Below, one piece after another: positions 1,591 to 29,404 of a stretch of DNA of 32,155 bases. The stretch comes from Macrostomum lignano (taxonomy: Eukaryota), in contig NIVC01004889.1 in assembly GCA_002269645.1 (NCBI GenBank), forward strand, positions 1 to 32,155. The letters run 5' to 3'. A program made the position numbers and the translations under genes. The notes below the pieces were generated by a model that worked only from the letters and a program-made list of their open reading frames with translations, was not told where the DNA came from and did no database searches. How positions within the stretch are numbered: position 1 is the first letter of the stretch; each line of letters begins with the position of its first letter.

Positions 1591-4015
1591 TTATTAATTT
1601 CCGGCGTGCCAACTGGGTCCTTTTCAAATTCACCCTGGAGAACTCGCTGTCTGACTTCAGCACTGACGGCAACGCTCATGGCGTCGAGAAGAATTTGCGC
1701 CGGATTATTCTCAAGGCGATGAAGACGGCCATCCCTGAAGGCCGATTCAAGCGCCAAGAAGCCTCGCCCTGCCCTGCTGTAATTCGCCACCTTCTAGCTG
1801 AACGCGACAAACTGCGCTCTGATGATGCTAGCGATCCTAGGATCCCTACACTCCAGAACCGCGTTACTGCTCTGATTGAAGAGGAACAACGTGCCCGATG
1901 GAACGATTTCTTGAATGAGCACGGGCAACAGCCTGCACCCACTCCGCATCTTTGGTCCACCATTAAACGTCTTTCCGGCCGTGTCACCTCCTCAGCTCGT
2001 AACATCATCATCCGTTTCGACGGAAGACCGACCTAGACCGACGCGGAGGCGGCTAATCGGCTTAATAAACAGTTCACGCAGCCGCGTGCTCACTGTTCGA
2101 ATCCAGCCATGCGCTTCGTCCGCCGCAAAGTTGCTGCACTCCCGCGCGAAGACCTGCTGCACTACCCTCTTGTATTTCTCCAAAGACAACCTGGTGCAGG
2201 CCATCAAACGCTCTAAGCCTTCGAAGGCTATCGGCCCTGACGGTATCTGTCCGCTAGTCATTAAACATTTCGGCCCCAAAGCCATCGACGTGCTCCTCGG
2301 CCTGTTCAACCGTTCGCTGCACTACAATGAAATCCCCGCGGTTTGGAAGAAATCGCTGATCTGCCCATTAATTAAAAGTGGCAAACCTCCGGATGACGGA
2401 GCCTCCTACCCCCCGATTTCGTTCCTCTCCCCGCTGGCTAAAATCTTTGAAAAACTCCTGCTGCCCCTGCTGACTGACCACCTTAAGCTCCCAGCTTGGC
2501 AGCACGGTTTCCGCCCAATGCACTCTACCACTACCGCATTGTGTCAGCTCGCCGAGCAGATCAGTACTGTTTTCTGCCAAGCCAAGCCCCGGCGAGAACT
2601 GGCACTGCTGCTCAGGATCTGAAGGCTGCCTTTGATTGTGTGGACCACTGTGAGCTCATCACCGACGTCTTCAACTCCGACCTGCCGAACCTCATCAAAG
2701 GCTGGCTCTGCAACTACCTTCTCGGTTGTCAAGCCCGCACAATACTCGTACTGCGCGACTGCAAGTCCGCCTGGCGCCAAGTTCGCATGGGAGTGCCCCA
2801 AGGTAGCGCGATCAACCCGCTTCTTTTCGCCTTCTACCTGAAGGACACCCCTACGCCGGATGACCCGAACTCCAGCCTTATCGGCTATGCCGATGACCTT
2901 ACAGCGGCTGCCTCTTCCGCGTCCATCTCGCGCATCCAAGAGCAACTCAACGCCTACTTAACGCGCTTGGCGCCGTTCCTCCATGCCCGCAAGCTCAAGG
3001 TCTCGGCAGCAAAATGCACCACGACGCTCTTCACTCCGGACCAACGGGAGTACGCCAAGGCCCTCGAGGTCTACTTCGACGGTTCCAGACTACCCCAGGC
3101 TCTCTTTCCTAAAATCCTGGGCGTGATCTTTGATCCGAAGATGACGTTCAGCCGTCACGTCAAGGCCACTATCGAGAAGGCCCACAAACATAACAGCGTC
3201 CTCCGCTGCTTGGCGGGTAGCAGTTGGGGCAGCTGCAAGGAGCTGCTGCTCAACACTTACAAGGCCATTTCGCGCAGCATCCTCAACTACGCTGCTCCTG
3301 TTTGGGGACCTGTCATCTCGTCCACCTCCTGGAACGGGCTCCAGTCGGTCCAAAACGCGGCCATTCGGTGCATCACCGGCTGCACCGTCAATACCTCTGT
3401 TGCCGACCTTCACTGCGAGACCCGGATGCTCCCGGTCCAGCAGCACAACAGGCTCCTGTCTCTCCAGTTCCTCCTGGCCTCTCGCCGTCCTGAGCACCCC
3501 TGCTACCACCTTTCCGCCTGCCCGGCTCCTCGCCGGCGCATGAAGCCGTCCATTTTTACCGCACCATTCTTTGACGATTCCTGGCAGCCAGTCGAAGCCC
3601 CGGCGGTCCTCGACGACGCGGCAGCCTGGGACAGGGCGAGGCGAGCTCAACACTCGCTCATCGTGCTCAATCACATCGACGGCCTACCTCCTAACCGCGT
3701 CGTCGGCCTTCGCCCCGACGTCTGCGATTCCGAGCGTTCTTTGCCGCGTCGGACCCGTTCTCTGCTCGCCCAGCTGCGCTCTGGCTTCAGTCCTATGCTT
3801 CGTAGTTACCAGCACCGGTTGAATCCTGAGACGCCTCCAAGCTGTCCTGAGTGCGACGCGGCCACGCATGATTGCCTGCATCTTTTTAATTGCCCGGCTC
3901 ACCCCACCGAGTTGGTGCCCTCTGACCTGTGGCGCAACCCTGTTGAAATCGCTGAGTTCCTGTCGCTGCCTGTCCAGCGCGACCCTGGCGAGGGTTAAAA
4001 ACAACAACAACAACA
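1591..4015 (+). mobile_element. 5'-truncated non-LTR retrotransposon (LINE): post-endonuclease linker, RT, C-terminal Cys/His knuckle, (AAC)n tail; no RNase H seen; clade not assigned
   Basis: NFRRANW linker start, SKAIGPDG, WKKSLICPLIK, QHGFRPMHST, DLKAAFDCVDH, GVPQGS, YADDL, LGVIFDPKMTF and CPECDAATHDCLHLFNC. TAA at 3996-3998 is followed directly by AAC repeats. Possible TSD ACCTGTCTA (1582-1590 / 4016-4024), not diagnostic inside the repeat. Confidence 0.93.
1595..3998 (+). pseudogene. Disrupted LINE ORF2 (reverse transcriptase)
   Basis: In-frame TAG at 2034-2036 plus frameshifts near 2170 and 2580-2620 split the RT over ORFs 1695..2036, 1915..2622 and 2496..3998. Confidence 0.88.
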
Positions 4016-22264: not shown

Positions 22265-22474
22265 TTATGTTCCTGAAAAACTCTTGGTTTTAGTTAGTTT
22301 CGTAGGTGTGGGTTTTAACAATTCCTTTCTTATTTTATCAGCTTGTAACTGCCTTAATTTTGCTAGTTCTAGTTCGTAATTATCTTCAGCTTTTTTAACT
22401 TTTTCTGATTGTTTTTTTATTAAATTATTATTATTATCGTGCTTTGCACGCGAACATGTTGTTCGATTACCCAT
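22265..22474 (-). CDS. Small basic coiled-coil protein, 69 aa, possible N-myristoylation (MGNRTTCS)
   Basis: AAAA-ATG start; fills the gap between penton and protease exactly. Confidence 0.55.
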   Translation of the reverse strand: MGNRTTCSRAKHDNNNNLIKKQSEKVKKAEDNYELELAKLRQLQADKIRKELLKPTPTKLTKTKSFSGT

Positions 22475-22484
22475 TTTTACAGTA

Positions 22485-23269
22485 CTAAACCTGTTTTATA
22501 CGTAAAATTATTGTTATTGACTGCCCACCAAAACTTATTAATCTATCGCTTTCATCTACAATCCTAATATAAATTGATTGAACATTATATTGATTTAATG
22601 GGTAATATATTGGGGTTTGGGTGCAACAATCATTTTCTCTCCAATTGGAACAGCAAGAAATGGGATTGAATAAATAATTCCACGTTGAACCAAAACTCCG
22701 TTATCGTCTGTTATATAACCACCGTTTGAAATGTCGGTTGTTATATTAATTGTATTTACTCCACCCTCTATATTTCCAACTGTATCACCGGTGCTTGATG
22801 TGGTAACTATTCGGGAATTAAATCCAAGTATGGTTCTGAGTGAATTTGCAATTGTGAAATCAACCTGATATCCGGATCCTAGTGATAGTGTGAATCTGCC
22901 AGACGGTAAATCAACACCTATAACAATTGCTCCTGCTACCCAATCACCATTAGTTGTTAATTCTCCTTCTATATAAGCATTCAAATCAGTATAGCTATAC
23001 GCTCCTGGGTTAACGCTAAATGTTGTCCAATTGGCTCCGGAATCTTTAGAATATCTAAATTGATTATTTGTTGCATTAATTAATTGAGGCATGTTGAAAA
23101 CCGAAAATAGTATTAAACCTATTTGATAACTTAGGCTTTGATCAAGTTGTAATGGATCGCGCAATTGAATCCGTTGCTCGCTGGTTGTCATTATAAACTG
23201 TAATGTTGTACTAAATTTTGAATTAGTTCGATCTACCAATTGTTTTATAGTATTTAAATTTGTAGTCAT
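22485..23269 (-). CDS. Minor capsid protein (penton, single jelly-roll), ~261 aa; frameshift near 22612-22618
   Basis: DPLQLD...YQIGL...FN...INATNNQFRY, PGAYSYTDLNAYI, DFTIANSLRTILGF, VN.INITTDI..GY. One added base gives IYYPLNQYNVQSIYIRIVDESDRLISFGGQSITIILRIKQV-stop. Confidence 0.85.
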
Positions 23270-23271
23270 TT

Positions 23272-24121
23272 TTATAGTGGGAAATTAATCGGACGAAGTC
23301 CGCGTTCCGATCGTATTCGTCTACGCGTGCTATGCTCCTCTTCTTCATTATCTTCTTTTATCAAATTTGTTAAAATTCTATGTTTCCTTTCTAACCTCGG
23401 ATTGATATAAATATGTTTGTATTGGCTATCATCCCAAATTTTTTTACACATACTTTTAAATGGTTTTGCATCCAATCCGGGATTAAATCTAGCGTGATAT
23501 TTTGTAATCATAGTTATCTAAATCAAACATTACACAACAGCTAGCATTCTTTTTTATAATCGATTCTAATTCTCTAAAGGATTGAGTAAGATAAAAAGCT
23601 CCAATTCCATCTCCTCTACCACTAACAAAAATTTCCTTTTGCAATTCTTGATCACCGTCATTAATACAATCATCAAAAATAATTAGTGTTTTATCATGTT
23701 TTGGAATTTGATCATAGGCTAATCGGGTTGATACTCTAACAGTTGGGGCTCGATCGGACGAAGTCCGCGACCCTTCGGGGCGATCGGTGATGTTTTCTGG
23801 CTGTTGTGCCATTGTTTTACATAAATCCTCAATGTCTGCTAGATTAAATCGCGGTTCGTCATCATCCTCATATTGCTCATATGCTCTTAACATTCTAAAC
23901 AAGACATCTTTTTTTAATTTGTTTTTTAATCCATGTTTAAGAAATTCATAATATTTTATTCTAGGTTTATTAGTATAAATTATTAAATTATTATAGTCTA
24001 ACATTCCATCTGTTGTTAATAAATCGTAAACAAAGTGTGTTTTTCCTTTACCTGATCCTCCGATTACTAAACAAAGAAAAGGATCATTTGGAAATATTTT
24101 ATTGTGTTTTGCCTTTACCAT
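23272..24121 (-). CDS. FtsK/HerA-type (A32-like) genome packaging ATPase; frameshift near 23512-23517
   Basis: Walker A LVIGGSGKGKT, Walker B LIIFDD, GRG..IGAFYLTQSF, then KKNAS. C-terminus continues in ORF 23272..23511. Confidence 0.92.
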
Positions 24122-24186
24122 TTTTAAAGAAATAATTTAAATAGGCGCGACGGTCGGAGACGGACACCGACGTGCTTTGCACTGCA

Positions 24187-25659
24187 CTAAAGTGGTGCGT
24201 CCCGAACAATCGTGCCATCAGCTTTAGCAATTGACATATATTCCTCTAGAAACAATACGTGGGCGTCAAGTGCCTGATTACCGGTTTTATTAATCTCTAA
24301 CATATAATTAAGTCCAATATTGGCTACGTTTTCTTTCTGTGCCGTTAGATCATAAACAACCACTGGATGAATGTTTAGAAACTCTGTGGGTGTGTACTGA
24401 GGGACGGCATACGCTTCATTTTTGGCATAATCTTGATAATATTTTATAAAATCATTAACATTATTATTTGCTATATTTAAATTTAGGGGGTCTTTAACCG
24501 GATAATATTGATCATCAACCTGCAGGCGGATATTCTGAACATTAAACTCGTTAATAGCTGCAGCCGCATTGTCTGTTGCGGTGGCTGCTTGTTCTGCTAT
24601 GGCACCGGATTGAAGCCAATATAAATCCCCATTTGCTCTTTTACTCCTTCTATTTGTTATCTTAAACCAAACAAAAATATATCTCACCCGACGTTTTGAT
24701 GTCAGTATTTGCCACTGGAATGAATCCTGGTTATTATTAATGGTTCGCATAAAATGTCGACGATTCAAATAAAATATTTCCTGATCATGCGTTAACTGAT
24801 TATCGATGTGTTTTAAAAGTGGGGCTGTTACCTCAATAGTTGGTACGACTAATTGAATTGAATCTATACGAACTGCTATATCGGTTGAAATTGAGGTTCC
24901 ATAAAGTATCCTAGGCTGATATCCACCAGATATTTGCAACTGTATCCCAAATTTTAATCCTTTCCATACCCGATTTGGTGAGAAAAACCCAAATAGTGGA
25001 AAGATTGAAAAGTCCTGCTCATATGCTGTTGCTGTGGTTAAAACCGCGACTGGGAATTTATTCTGACGATCTATAAAACCAGTATTAATATCTTTTGTAT
25101 TAGTCATAGTGGTTACAACTGGAACTATGTTTGTATTAAGGTAAACAATTAGCGCTGCAGTATCTGCACCGGCTGCGTTTTGTACATTAGGGAAAACTAC
25201 TGCTTGACCGTTACCTTTATCCGGCATCCACCCAACATTATCACCAACTTGTTTTGATAAATAAGTATAATTTAAATGTTTCAAAACTCCATTAATCTCT
25301 GCGGGGTTTGATGATGTCTCAACCTCAGCACCATTAACAGTTAGTTGAGCTTGGGAAAAACATTTATAAAACCAATCATTTTCTATTATTATTCCGGATC
25401 GATCTGCGATATCTCCGGCTGCAAGAGCAGTTCCATCATTTCTAGTATACAACCATCTAACGCGGAAAAACGCATTTTTCATATCCAATATAGTGTTGGT
25501 TGCGCCGATGTCAAAAGTTACCGTTCCAGTAGTAAAGTTATTTGAATTATCACTTGTTGGTAGGGTATAATTTAAATCTCTTGCTCTGACCTCATTAATA
25601 TACTGTCGGTGCTTTTTGAAATGAAATTTATCACTCCACATAGTTTTTGTTTCAGCCAT
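24187..25659 (-). CDS. Major capsid protein (double jelly-roll), 490 aa, intact
   Basis: VTFDI...LDMKNAFFRV, NDWFYKCFSQAQLTVNG.EVE..NP, RRVRYIFVWF, NIRLQVDDQYYP, FLNIHPVVVYDLTAQKE follow the Polinton MCP pattern. Size and position next to the ATPase fit. Confidence 0.87.
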   Translation of the reverse strand: MAETKTMWSDKFHFKKHRQYINEVRARDLNYTLPTSDNSNNFTTGTVTFDIGATNTILDMKNAFFRVRWLYTRNDGTALAAGDIADRSGIIIENDWFYKCFSQAQLTVNGAEVETSSNPAEINGVLKHLNYTYLSKQVGDNVGWMPDKGNGQAVVFPNVQNAAGADTAALIVYLNTNIVPVVTTMTNTKDINTGFIDRQNKFPVAVLTTATAYEQDFSIFPLFGFFSPNRVWKGLKFGIQLQISGGYQPRILYGTSISTDIAVRIDSIQLVVPTIEVTAPLLKHIDNQLTHDQEIFYLNRRHFMRTINNNQDSFQWQILTSKRRVRYIFVWFKITNRRSKRANGDLYWLQSGAIAEQAATATDNAAAAINEFNVQNIRLQVDDQYYPVKDPLNLNIANNNVNDFIKYYQDYAKNEAYAVPQYTPTEFLNIHPVVVYDLTAQKENVANIGLNYMLEINKTGNQALDAHVLFLEEYMSIAKADGTIVRDAPL

Positions 25660-25693
25660 TTTTTTAAGTTAAAAAAGTTTTTTATGTTAAAAA

Positions 25694-26358
25694 ATGAGTC
25701 AATTTATGGACGTTGATGGAGAGTTAGCGATTTATAAAGAGAAGCAAAGATATTCTGATTTTGTTAGAAATTTACAAAAAAGAAAGTTAGGAATACAATT
25801 AGCTGGCGAAAGATTTGCTGCTCCTTTTGTTAATCCTATTACTGGGAAAATTAGTGAACTAGAAAAAACAGATAAAGATCTTCTGGAAAAAATTGCTAAA
25901 AATACGAGCCAAAAGAGGATGAAATTTTGGATGAGCCGCCTGCTTATGATGTTGATCAAGCAATATTTAGAGTTGCAGAATTAGACGTGAGAGATTAGGG
26001 GTGGAGTTGAACAATATCCAAGAGATGCGCCACTAGTATTGCTGCGACAGATTTAGGTGGTGGTAATTATCGAATTGGTAGTTGATAAAATCGAAATGAA
26101 CTATATAGAGAATTGGGCGGAGCATTTAATATTATTACGAACCCTAGGGTAAAATTTAACCCTGATTTATATACTAGGGATGAATTAATAAGTGCTAGAA
26201 TTTTTTATGATGAGTTAGGAGGAGCTGTTAAAAATACCAGCTTGTATAAAAGGATTGTTAATTCTATAAATAACAAACCAGCTGTTGGTGATGGATTTAA
26301 AACACCGCGAAAACTTGTTTTAGCTGCTGCGAAAGCTGCTGGACATACTGGAGTTTAA
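25694..26358 (+). CDS. Conserved Maverick protein (PZ/PW-like, function unknown), ~220 aa, broken by about 3-4 frameshifts
   Basis: FVNPITGKI, NYRIG, YTRDEL...Y.RIV, and C-terminal GDG...LV..AAKAAGHTGV resemble recalled Maverick motifs (F.PIT..L; YT..DL..Y; G.G...L.AS..AGNT). Exact junctions are uncertain. Confidence 0.5.
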
Positions 26359-26385
26359 TTAATTGTTAAATTTATTTTTTATAAA

Positions 26386-26955
26386 ATGGATGAAACAAAA
26401 ATTTGTACTACGTGTAAAATTGAGAAACCGATGACTAAAGAATTTTTTTGTTGGAGAAATGACACAAAAAAATTTAAAAATCTTTGTCGATCTTGTGAGA
26501 AAGTTAAATGTACTATGTGGAGAATAAACAATAAAGATAAATGTAATAAATATGCAAAAAATAAATATCGCACTGATGAAAATTTCAAAAATATTAGTCT
26601 AATTAGAGCTAAAATAACTTGGGCATTGAGAACTTTTCATGACAAACATTATATCTCATATCTTGGTTGCACAAAAGAATTCTTTTTTGATTGGTTAAAT
26701 TTCACAAGAAATTATTATGTTCCAAAAAATTATACTGGAAAGTTAGATATTGATCATTTCATTCCCGCTTCTTCATTTAATTACAAAGACGATGATCAGA
26801 TTAAAAAGTCTGAAAATTGGAGAAATAAAAGATACTTAACTAGCGTAGATAATAACTATAAAAAAGTTAAACAACCAACAATTGAAGAATTTGCGAAACA
26901 ATTGGTGCTATCATGTATTTTTAAGGCTATTAAAAATGAACCAAATAGTGTTTGA
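26386..26955 (+). CDS. Free-standing HNH (beta-beta-alpha-Me) endonuclease with N-terminal C4 zinc finger, 189 aa, intact
   Basis: CTTC...CRSC; YLGCT..F..WL; DIDHFIPASSF...NWRN...L..VDN..K, the pattern of giant-virus/phage HNH endonucleases (IDH.IP...F......NL.PL...DN..K). Confidence 0.85.
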   Translation: MDETKICTTCKIEKPMTKEFFCWRNDTKKFKNLCRSCEKVKCTMWRINNKDKCNKYAKNKYRTDENFKNISLIRAKITWALRTFHDKHYISYLGCTKEFFFDWLNFTRNYYVPKNYTGKLDIDHFIPASSFNYKDDDQIKKSENWRNKRYLTSVDNNYKKVKQPTIEEFAKQLVLSCIFKAIKNEPNSV

Positions 26956-27061
26956 AGGAGGATTTTTAGACTTACAAAAAGGATTAACGAGCTTACCACC
27001 AATCTTTACTACTGGTAAATATACAGGGGAACTACACCTACCATCAATGAACTTCACAGGT
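26936..27061 (+). CDS. PLA2-integrase fusion gene, exon 1 (42 codons, MNQIVFEGGFLDL...ELHLPSMNFTG)
   Basis: TAAAA-ATG start. ELHLP..NFTG is the first half of the parvovirus-type PLA2 Ca-binding loop, completed by PGT at 27365. Confidence 0.88.
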
Positions 27062-27364
27062 TAACCCGTGGCCTGAGTGAGGAAGGCAATGTCCTTGCTA
27101 GTCACTATTTGTGGCGACATCTCCAAATTGCGTGAAACCCGTCATACAGCTTCAAGTACCACTTCAAGTGAGAAATCTTTTGAAGGAACAGAGGTAACTC
27201 CTCTTCCCAAAGGTAAAAAGCTTGAAGACACGGTGGCAATGCGCAGCCAAGCTCCTAAGTATTTTAAATATAAGGAGAAGGTTCAGAGAGCAGACGGAGA
27301 TGGGCGGTAATTATCGCCGCTTAAGGTGTGCTCCAGCCTCATTCGAAAGATTGAGGGTAAACAG
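27062..27364 (+). ncRNA. Group I self-splicing intron, subgroup IC1-like, 303 nt, no internal ORF of note
   Basis: Exon-terminal U27061 pairs with G27071 in P1 (CAGGU/GCCUG); intron ends in G27364. P3 CAUCUCC 27118-24/GGAGAUG 27296-302. P element AAAUUGCGUGAAA 27125-37; Q AAUGCGCAGC 27238-47; R GUUCAGAGAGCAGA 27281-94; S AAGGUGUGCUCC 27323-34. P7 is fully paired with G27288-C27333. P5abc has GAAA and GUAA tetraloops; P8; P9 with GAAA loop. GC ~47% by hand count. Confidence 0.95.
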
Positions 27365-28532
27365 CCGGGGACTAGACTGGATTTAAGATTAAATCCTGAC
27401 AATACTCCAAAATCTGATTCAATTCCAATAAATGGGATTGATTGGTTAGCATACTATCACGACTTAGCATATAGAGATGCTGACAAGAACCCGCCCGAGG
27501 AAGCATTAAGATTAAAACATGAAGCCGATCAAAAAATGATTCAAGGATTAGATAACTTGCAGGGATTATCGGTAGGTCAAAAATTAACTAGGTGGATGGT
27601 TAAAAAGATCTTGCAGTCTAAAGTTAAATTTGGTTTGGGAATTAATTATAATCAACATGGAAATAATTGTGTTGAGTGTTTGTTATTAAGTGGTGGGTTA
27701 AGTTCTGATGAGGCAAAGATTCTTCATAAAGAATATCGAAAACCTAAATTTTATAGAAAAATCATGAACTTCAAAAAGAATGAAATTTGGTATGCTGATT
27801 TAATGTCGATGCCGAACGAAAGAGGATATAAATATATCTTAACCATATTAGATGGTTTTACTCGATACGCGTGGGCTGTTCCTTTAAAATCCAAAAAGGA
27901 GAGGAGGTTGCTGCTGCTTTTAGAAGTCTTGGAGAAAAAAGCGAACGTTTGTGTGTTGACGAAGGAAAAGAATTTTACAATCCTCATATGTATAAATTGT
28001 ATCATTTTGAAAAAGGACAAGAAAGGAAAAAGACGCGAATGGGGAGTATATTAATAAAATTTATTCTATTTATGGAGAGAGTAAAAACGCATTAATAGAA
28101 AGATTTAATAGAACTTTAGGTAAGAAATTATGGTTTCAGTTTAGTCTTAATGGTAACCAAAAATGGGTAAAAATATTACCAGACGTAGTGAAAGATTATA
28201 ACAATTCATATCATTCGGCGATAAAGATGACTCCTCAACAAGCTTATAACAATCCTGAAAATGTTAGGGTTACTTTTGGAAAATTTGAAAAAAAAAAAAA
28301 AATTTTAAGTTGGTGATTCTGTTTATATCTATAAATGGAAAGATAAGTTTGAAAAGGGAAGAAAAGGATATTGGAAGATAAGTGAGAAATTTACTATCAG
28401 TAAAGTTTTAAATACCAATCCTACAACCTATATAATTGCTGATAAGGACGGTGAAGAAATATTGGGTTCTTTTTATGAGAACAGATATTATCTGCAACTA
28501 AGTTCGATCAGTTACTTAAGACAACATGGTAG
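27365..28532 (+). CDS. PLA2-integrase fusion gene, exon 2: parvovirus-type phospholipase A2, linker, rve (DDE) integrase, SH3-like C-terminal domain; frameshifts near 27895, 28025, 28288-28308 and ~28480
   Basis: PGTRLDLRL...PINGIDWLAYYHDLAY...EAD (HD dyad). Then LHKEYRK, WYADL (D), YILTILDGFTRYAWAVPLKSK, CVDEGKEFYN (D), LIERFNRTL (E), YNNSYHSAIKMTP, VGDSV...KFEKG...GSFYE. No chromodomain seen; the 3' end is approximate. Confidence 0.9.
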
Positions 28533-28564
28533 TAAATTTTTTATAACAAACAAAAACAATATTA

Positions 28565-28735
28565 TTACATAATTGTTACTAATATTATTATTGACATTTG
28601 TTCAACTGTTATCAAACTTAAATTTTCATTAAGTTCATTAATCGGCACATTTCCGATGTAGGAATAGTTTACCTTCATTTTTTTATATATATTTTTCACA
28701 ATAAATGTCGTTTCTGTTATAGAATAATAGTTCAT
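28565..28735 (-). CDS. Possible small ORF, 56 aa (MNYYSITETTF...)
   Basis: A-run before ATG and fills an otherwise empty gap; no motif. Confidence 0.35.
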   Translation of the reverse strand: MNYYSITETTFIVKNIYKKMKVNYSYIGNVPINELNENLSLITVEQMSIIILVTIM

Positions 28736-28751
28736 TTTTTAAATATTTTTT

Positions 28752-29066
28752 TCACATAAAAATTTCACTTTCATTCTCTGAATCACTGGTTTCATATGAA
28801 CTATTTGTTGATTCGGAATCTGTTGATCTAACCTCCCAATCATCCGAATTTAAATAATCTCCAAGTTGAAATATTAACTCACCCTCTTGTTCTAAATCAT
28901 ACATCTCATCTAGCTCTAATGGATAAAGTTTTAGGTCGTGCTTGTCGTCATATTTTAAATAAACTTCATCAATTATTCCATTCAAAATATGTTGTTTTAT
29001 TATCTCTGCATTTTTAGCAACAGTCTCAAAAGTATCACTAACAGAAAAGGTGTAAACTCGGTTCAT
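28752..29066 (-). CDS. Acidic hypothetical protein, 104 aa
   Basis: TATAAAAA-ATG 18 bp inside the right TIR; Ser/Glu/Asp-rich tail. Confidence 0.6.
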   Translation of the reverse strand: MNRVYTFSVSDTFETVAKNAEIIKQHILNGIIDEVYLKYDDKHDLKLYPLELDEMYDLEQEGELIFQLGDYLNSDDWEVRSTDSESTNSSYETSDSENESEIFM

Positions 29067-29083
29067 TTTTTATAACAGAAAAA

Positions 29084-29404
29084 GACCCTTCGCGCCTGCG
29101 GCGCGTGCGACGGGTTCTAGAAAGTTTGTGTGTGTTGGAGAGAGTTGGAAGCGTTGACGATACAAAATACCCAGCAAACCAAAGCGAGCGACGAGGGCGT
29201 GTTCTCACCATTCAAAAAGAATTAATCGTTGTAAGTGTGAAATGGCCTGTTTGACCGAAATGAAGCGAGGATGAGCGAAGCGAGTTGAGCGAAGTGAAGA
29301 CGAGCGAAAATGAAGGGAAACAGGCCATTTCACACTGATAAAGGGTTAAATTGTTTGCAATGGTGAGAATGGTTTGCTGGGTATTTTGTATGGTATATAC
29401 TACT
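29084..29404 (-). repeat. Right terminal inverted repeat (321 bp)
   Basis: Ends GTATATACTACT at 29404; reverse complement of the left TIR. Confidence 0.96.

Follow-up and report, generated by a model that had tools for sequence, protein, structure and literature searches.

A group I intron in animal Maverick elements as a possible shield for the target of an Eco47II-like nuclease

Does a free-standing HNH-type nuclease gene spread together with the group I intron beside it, when that intron has no open reading frame (ORF) of its own? The question is raised by a Maverick element within the window analyzed here, 32,155 nucleotides of a Macrostomum lignano contig, for which an initial annotation proposed that the HNH enzyme cuts intron-less alleles of the adjacent PLA2 gene near the intron insertion site. 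Such collaborative homing is known from cyanophage S-PM2, where the psbA intron is paired with the free-standing endonuclease F-CphI (PMC6083498, PMC3984707).

The Maverick setting itself was borne out. The element carries a protein-primed DNA polymerase B (pPolB), an A32-like packaging ATPase, an rve integrase, and terminal inverted repeats, and it falls within the 15-25 kb size range of Mavericks/Polintons (Table 1). For target-site duplication one copy, that of the window, was compared, and its flanks differ from each other. By Pfam, the intron-containing gene is a fusion of a PLA2-like domain with the rve integrase, whose integrase region is broken by frameshifts in the window copy; natural intron-less alleles form a single open frame of 423-452 aa that runs through a G-P-G motif. 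As Wnt genes are present in the genome, some of them sharing contigs with copies of the element, the host is an animal. A fragment of a non-LTR retrotransposon reverse transcriptase lies in the host flank at 1700-4000 and served as a control below; the other flanking DNA of the window is mainly tandem repeats.

Table 1. Features of the Maverick element in the window
Feature	Position	Strand	Remarks
Maverick/Polinton element, 17,458 bp	11947..29404	.	terminal inverted repeats ~320 bp; zero internal GGNCC
Protein-primed DNA polymerase B (pPolB)	15027..17567	+	PF03175, E 1.1e-18
A32-like packaging ATPase	23489..24121	-	PF04665, E 1.5e-5
Probable major capsid protein, 490 aa	24187..25659	-	suggested by size and position; no significant Pfam match
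Zinc-finger HNH-type nuclease gene, 189 aa, open	26386..26955	+	one allele of an exchangeable slot
PLA2-integrase exon 1, 42 codons, the last a Gly codon (GGT)	26936..27061	+	
GGN, 5' half of intron-split GGNCC	27059..27061	+	
ORF-less group I intron (type A), 303 nt, terminal G in window copy	27062..27364	+	
P7 5' strand, GAGCA	27288..27292	+	pairs with 27329-27333
P7 3' strand, TGCTC	27329..27333	+	
CC, 3' half of split GGNCC, start of Pro codon	27365..27366	+	
PLA2-integrase exon 2, open part	27365..28054	+	

The local arrangement also agrees with the initial annotation: the HNH ORF shares its final 20 nt with the PLA2 start (ATG at 26936), and 106 nt separate its end from the intron, which in the window copy contains no ORF of 80 aa or more. 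Sequence and structure confirm a real ORF-less group I intron at this position, with splicing predicted across the junctions TTCACAGGT|...AAACAG|CCGGGGACT. Against Rfam RF00028 the intron scored 65.7 bits (E 2.8e-16; gathering score 50); a fast gathering-score Rfam scan of the whole window did not pick it up. Its fold had a z score of -2.57, and none of 100 shuffled sequences was equally stable. Across 13 aligned introns 90.9% of 481 cells were paired (34-50% in slid controls), and changes on both sides were found in 14 of 37 pairs, which was matched by 0 of 500 shuffles and compared with at most 4 in the slid controls, the structure having been drawn from the window copy, which biases the comparison in its favor. 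The group I core from P3 to P9 shows compensatory changes, three P7 pairs of intron A differ on both sides from those of the homologous introns B and C, and the U at the 5' splice site pairs with a G in P1. A scan for the P1 motif gave 10 matches, all of which we judged to be chance. Contigs of four runs, which we guessed to be RNA, held no intron-skipping joint over 26000-28000, and this is uninformative because contigs lose rare forms.

Group I introns universally end in G. Among sibling copies of the window intron (type A), the last base is A in 85 of 114 and G in 29; in a second Maverick family described below, it is G in 18 of 18. The copies ending in A (for example, L007) have an unchanged P7, and splicing at another G, nine bases upstream, would likewise be in frame. 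The hexacoral mitochondrial intron ND5-717 is a comparable group I intron without the terminal G (omega-G) and still ligates its exons in vivo (PMC6545197). Unlike in that intron, omega-A and omega-G are polymorphic here within one viral family, and splicing is a prediction. Further copies carry an intron of another type, B (L049:2210-2545, L109, and 22 further loci), with a 5' splice site identical to that of type A; P2.1 and P5abc are common to the two types, and the P3/P4/P6/P7 core is different. In type B, the 3' site homologous to that of A would be out of frame; splicing one base earlier would be in frame and would leave no Gly-Pro at the junction. Rfam detected intron B in neither of two copies, and we accept it as a group I intron on the basis of paired P3, P4, P7, and P9. 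An 833-nt insert within the type-B intron of L119 was rejected as an endonuclease gene, as it looks like an inserted element.

The initial annotation predicted that HNH and intron would occur together. Searches with the intron, the HNH gene, and exon 2 fetched 160 loci, and removal of 12 duplicates left 148 to be classed; only 150 of the 496 candidates from the exon 2 search were scored, so all locus counts are lower bounds. Seven of these belong to the second family and at least 141 to that of the window (family 1). Within family 1, intron A accompanies HNH at 80 loci and another slot gene, an Eco47II-like nuclease, at 30, and intron B accompanies them at 16 and 7, respectively; HNH stands without an intron at 3 loci, and in the remaining 5 the slot is filled by a third gene or a fragment or is not visible. 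Thus, HNH is found with an intron at 96 loci, the Eco47II-like gene occurs with an intron and without HNH at 37, and HNH adjoins an intron-less allele at 3. The assembly contains haplotype duplicates, and collapsing at ~99% reduces these figures to 64, 21, and 2 clusters. The choice of slot gene and the type of intron were unlinked: the Eco47II-like gene occupies 30 of the 110 loci with intron A and 7 of the 23 with intron B.

HNH is therefore neither needed beside the intron nor excluded from intron-less alleles, small as the numbers are, and the predicted dependence largely gave way to independence. Frames are open in 68 of 99 HNH copies, including 2 of the 3 beside intron-less alleles, and broken in 31. 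In addition, co-occurrence is expected in any case, as nearly every family-1 locus (138 of 141) has an intron, so the presence of an intron at 96 of 99 HNH loci, which agrees with a partnership, carries little contrast; the comparison of 37:0 with 96:3 is not significant (Fisher p 0.56), and with only three intron-less loci it leaves room for a partnership as well. It is possible that exon variants in those three alleles confer resistance to the enzyme. The Eco47II-like gene was beside an intron-less allele at 0 of 37 family-1 loci, a result of low power given the same p of 0.56. A genome-wide search with a junction pattern found 23 alleles without the intron. Of these, 20 belong to family 2 and 3 to family 1, the latter all with HNH, and none shares a contig with a match to the Eco47II-like gene.

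The HNH protein carries residues of a candidate beta-beta-alpha-metal motif. It had no Pfam match and no match in a word-index search; a full HMMER search recovered 1,409 relatives, and its atlas neighbor lay at 0.89. In 55 aligned relatives H124, N156, and K159 are invariant and N147 is nearly so. The predicted model had a pLDDT of 95. Its Foldseek matches were weak, with a best E of 0.058 and none below 0.001, and most were HNH domains of Cas9; the HNH profile searched against solved sequences reached a best E of 0.048. Among 123 viral loci, 16 ORF segments matched the HNH profile, and all 12 of those examined have group I core motifs inside or adjacent, with Rfam support in 5 loci; the loci were picked via an intron motif, which biases the frequency of intron-encoded relatives. 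Because relatives sit within group I introns of other viruses, HNH is placed by sequence in the homing-endonuclease stock. Some of these relatives lie within intron loops in viral contigs (L258:3602-7671, L241, L255, L207, and L274) that read as having several group I introns in a giant-virus-like major capsid gene, an assignment that follows from our own reading of L258.

These traits, together with the service of ORF-less introns in trans proposed for Bodo saltans virus (PMC5871332), are what speaks for HNH cutting the intron-less PLA2 junction and spreading with the ORF-less intron. We nonetheless regard this as improbable, and HNH is probably not the partner of the intron. Besides the two open HNH genes next to intron-less alleles and the 37 intron loci without HNH, the alleles of HNH diverge to ~51% identity (dN/dS 0.51), whereas the PLA2 exon that they would have to cut is conserved (dN/dS 0.06), and this reading leaves unexplained both the second family and the missing sequence word described below. 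HNH occupies about seven in ten slots, and its alleles are mosaic, with the N-terminal half the most variable (dN 0.17 versus 0.08). We infer that it is a later slot occupant with a target of its own, perhaps the Eco47II-like allele.

That alternative gene shares with HNH an identical start context and the same overlap of the PLA2 start, which makes the two alleles of one slot. The sole Pfam match of the free-standing protein is PF09553, the Eco47II family, at 20.6-25.3 bits (E 1.3e-5 to 3.8e-4), just below the cut-off; a related form encoded within introns passes it (30.7 versus 25.9 bits). In the atlas it lies at 0.94 to Eco47II clusters, which also occur in Nucleocytoviricota. Residues E49, D65, E76, and K78 are invariant in 13 of 13 aligned proteins, as is the catalytic D...ELK signature. 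The predicted model (pLDDT 89) has EcoO109I as its best full-length structural match (Z 9.6 over 166 residues, rmsd 3.6; next Z 6.3), and the matches at E below 0.001 are DdmD, EcoO109I, and AvaII. The protein thus combines PD-(D/E)xK residues with a restriction-enzyme fold. With dN/dS at 0.25 within family 1 and ~0.19 between families, it is under purifying selection, and frames are open in 26 of 37 copies and broken in 11. The sites of EcoO109I and AvaII share a GG-x-CC core, and the relatives cut RGGNCCY or GGWCC. Homologues of Eco47II have been linked to GGNCC (PMC10305163). Judged by family, fold, and the site depletion described next, this PD-(D/E)xK nuclease most likely cuts GGNCC. Relatives of the nuclease were absent from the phage records, and the viral contigs contained none of the Eco47II-like protein, the PLA2 exon, or the PLA2-integrase.

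GGNCC is missing from the element. Its 17,458 bp contain 0 occurrences where dinucleotide composition predicts 19.5, the lowest value of 64 palindromic patterns; codon-order shuffles of its ORFs gave a mean of 13.1 and a minimum of 4 (500 shuffles), and the synonymous-shuffle test alone was modest (P 0.014). Since the Gly-Pro codons spell GGNCC in every synonymous form, loss of the site also removes the dipeptide, and Gly-Pro is absent from 22 ORFs totaling 4,460 aa (7.5 expected), while Pro-Gly does occur. By comparison, the ORFs of the host LINE in the window have 11 GGNCC (12.3 expected) and 4 Gly-Pro, and host DNA has 26 GGNCC in 12 kb. Around the Eco47II-like gene, GGNCC was absent from the element-homologous part in 13 of 13 stretches of 10 kb, 11 of them lacking it entirely and 2 having it only outside that part. 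Both Maverick families compared for this depletion carry the Eco47II-like gene; the DNA upstream of intron-less alleles in family 2, taken in 10-kb stretches, proved to be mostly from the host and was rejected as a control. Family 1 is also low in CCNGG (6 versus 19.5) and CTNAG (16 versus 39.6), which is not clearly so in family 2; possibly this reflects another nuclease pressure.

The intron sits exactly where the missing word would otherwise be. The intron-less junction reads GGN|CC and encodes the Gly-Pro of the PLA2 G-P-G motif, so that the predicted target coincides with the insertion site and is split by the intron. In one of the intron-less family-1 alleles (L174) the junction is the sole GGNCC in 10 kb; L175 has one more in the element part, and L176 has three more, in non-homologous DNA.

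The second family shows the same combination in a different layout. A genome search with the Eco47II-like protein gave 103 matches, and at 18 of 20 loci around chosen divergent matches an intron holds the nuclease ORF within an extended P2.1 stem, downstream of the 5' splice site and ahead of the ribozyme core. These introns, of 836-895 nt, occupy the insertion site of intron A, and the order is exon 1, 5' splice site with the P1 of intron A, ORF, core, terminal G, and exon 2; Rfam scored 7 of 8 tested at 82-89 bits. As the gene lies inside the intron, co-occurrence of nuclease and intron is automatic in this family. Gene order differs from that of family 1, and the capsid proteins are only 23-37% identical. 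Yet GGNCC is missing here too: in one element the count is 0 versus 17.2 expected, and the ORFs tested lack Gly-Pro; it is also 0 in four more stretches, 9-10 kb long and two of them from intron-less elements. Counts taken from the terminal repeat onward gave none at 10 of 12 loci and one at the other 2. At two loci (L194 and L196), a GGNCC early in exon 2 is accompanied by a short broken nuclease ORF (93 aa). At another (L140), exon 1 and a truncated start of intron C with ORF are followed by a second, intron-less PLA2-integrase gene, which looks like nuclease loss with gain of an intron-less allele.

All of this might in principle be neutral coincidence: the introns would simply be carried along in a conserved motif, the genes in the slot would be idle cargo, and the lack of GGNCC would be a matter of composition. 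Group I introns generally favor conserved motifs, GC content is low (~34%), other palindromes are somewhat scarce, and the broken frames among HNH and Eco47II-like copies (31 of 99 and 11 of 37) would suit idle cargo. We consider this very improbable. The two families are diverged, yet both show zero GGNCC where 19.5 and 17.2 would be expected (Poisson probabilities 3e-9 and 3e-8), Gly-Pro is lacking although Pro-Gly occurs, the nuclease is under purifying selection, and the known site of its family, the missing word, and the insertion point are one and the same.

If the nuclease cuts GGNCC, how are the elements protected? In a restriction-modification system one would look for the cognate methyltransferase beside the nuclease, and none was found in a search for C5 methylases: with all 15 candidates scored, the genome gave 12 PF00145 matches, and not one shares a contig with a match to the Eco47II-like gene. 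A giant-virus-like metagenome contig (L205:5881-7425), on the other hand, pairs a distant homologue, an Eco47II-family nuclease, with a convergent C5 methylase and retains GGNCC (2 versus 4.7 expected). Two relatives of this methylase from bacteria were inspected, and one has an adjacent Eco47II gene.

On balance, we favor a reading in which the intron serves as a restriction-site shield whose partner is the Eco47II-family nuclease and not HNH. What the initial annotation proposed in general terms, a slot nuclease whose target the intron hides, fits the data; the enzyme it named does not fit as well as the Eco47II-like one. The Maverick nuclease would cut GGNCC, and the element would protect itself by genome-wide loss of the word instead of methylation. 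At the sole remaining Gly-Pro, in the PLA2 G-P-G motif, an intron at GGN|CC would break the DNA site and splicing would restore the codons. Among relatives, a 5-bp cutter would then be left with one target, the intron-less PLA2 allele, and could act as a homing endonuclease when elements replicate together, while also cutting unprotected foreign DNA. Because host DNA has many GGNCC sites, the nuclease cannot be active in ordinary nuclei; it would be silent there and active during viral replication, when it could cut host or helper DNA. Family 2 carries the gene inside the intron, and the free-standing upstream gene of family 1 would be the collaborative arrangement. In the window copy the slot would have been taken over by HNH, the target of which is probably not the junction, and the intron would be kept because nuclease-bearing siblings still circulate. 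We hold with slightly less assurance, but still lean toward, the wider proposal that this is restriction without a methylase in animal-integrated viruses, spread to other eukaryotic viruses as well, in which the purge of GGNCC and Gly-Pro together with a ribozyme over the sole indispensable site turns a 5-bp cutter into a homing endonuclease, present both within its intron and outside it.

The shield could also exist without homing. The nuclease might serve to attack host DNA, a helper, or a rival giant virus, or the pressure might come from the GGNCC restriction system of another virus, and the intron would then have spread through selection for immunity and ordinary recombination instead of break-induced conversion. 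A 5-bp cutter would find very numerous foreign targets, giant-virus restriction has been interpreted as host-DNA recycling or competitor exclusion (PMC7253447), and the occurrence of Eco47II clusters in Nucleocytoviricota fits such a role. Elements without a nuclease gene are purged as well. Moreover, 20 intron-less alleles persist in family 2, at least two with open PLA2-integrase frames, in elements ~98% identical to intron-plus ones downstream of the site, so homing is not sweeping. We nevertheless judge this account unlikely, if less so than a partnership with HNH. An ORF inside the intron, as in family 2, is the layout of a mobile intron, and this form apparently exists outside the genome too, since 12 of 24 outside homologues, read as translated sequence, continue into that of a ribozyme core. 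Fixed exon differences between intron A and intron B alleles are confined to -4 to about +22 nt, and these short intron-linked tracts indirectly resemble co-conversion tracts. The two accounts are not exclusive, as the shield step is common to both. In a tree, both Maverick forms of the nuclease group (support 89/91) among intron-encoded relatives; this hints, though not firmly, that the family 1 gene left its intron rather than entering one.

Under the shield-and-homing reading, the system resembles both collaborative homing and restriction, yet no C5 methylase accompanies the nuclease, and HNH is not kept apart from intron-less alleles. With S-PM2 and F-CphI it shares a group I intron that has no ORF and interrupts a conserved gene, an adjacent free-standing nuclease, a predicted block of self-cleavage, and the existence of one nuclease in free-standing and in-intron states, as in the proposed pathway to mobile introns. 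It differs in being an animal nuclear element in which the partner is likely to be an enzyme of restriction type with a short site, left with a single target through genome-wide site loss, and the tree hints at exit from the intron, not entry. Eco47II-type restriction-modification, including that of giant viruses (PMC10305163, PMC7253447), is matched in family, in the invariant D...ELK of 13 proteins, and in the EcoO109I-like fold; unlike in type II systems, the gene is found in Mavericks without an adjacent C5 methylase and within introns, and protection apparently comes from the purge and the intron.

Other viruses offer partial parallels. A 2025 survey of protist Polinton-like viruses reports RF00028 introns of ~300-380 nt, similar in size to intron A, in a few protist groups only; the gene that holds them is short and precedes the one for the capsid, and the parts of the survey available assign no endonuclease to them (PMC12220804). 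Here, by contrast, the host is an animal, the gene is a PLA2-integrase, three intron types occur, and a nuclease can be named. Bodo saltans virus has introns that carry HNH or GIY-YIG endonucleases, as well as offspring of these without an ORF, and, like the system here, is a eukaryotic DNA virus with trans-served ORF-less introns and a proposed role for them as a weapon in co-infection (PMC5871332). It differs as a cytoplasmic giant virus with classical long-site endonucleases, and the portions of that report at hand describe no site purge (PMC5871332). HNH domains are carried by nematode Polinton polymerases (bioRxiv 2023.08.22.554363), and both restriction-modification and collaborative homing have been suggested for Polinton-like viruses (PMC11296320; bioRxiv 2026.10.13.758929). 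By term counts, the main text of the adintovirus paper has no mention of endonucleases, restriction, or splicing (PMC8502044). In the literature covered, which leaves out Repbase reports, most subscription journals, and supplements, neither the presence of group I introns in Mavericks of animals nor an intron-encoded Eco47II-type enzyme with a site purge turned up.

A 2013 review placed nuclear group I introns only in rRNA genes of microorganisms (PMC3679873), and the introns described here add well over a hundred protein-coding loci in animal nuclear DNA. If the nuclease does cut GGNCC, an ORF-less intron would be kept as an immunity gene, homing specificity would have been reached by a new route, with fewer sites in place of a longer one, and restriction and homing enzymes would be linked through both gene layouts in one genome. 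It would also be indirect evidence that these Mavericks replicate as viruses and come into conflict when they share a cell.

The slot and its surroundings vary further among sibling copies. At L104:1368-1832 and L153 there is a third slot gene of ~155 aa, acidic and without a Pfam match, and what is left of the 3' end of HNH comes after it. Both the overlap of slot and PLA2 (26936-26945 in the window) and the intron loops P5 and P6 repeatedly carry short hairpin-like inserts (30-65 nt).
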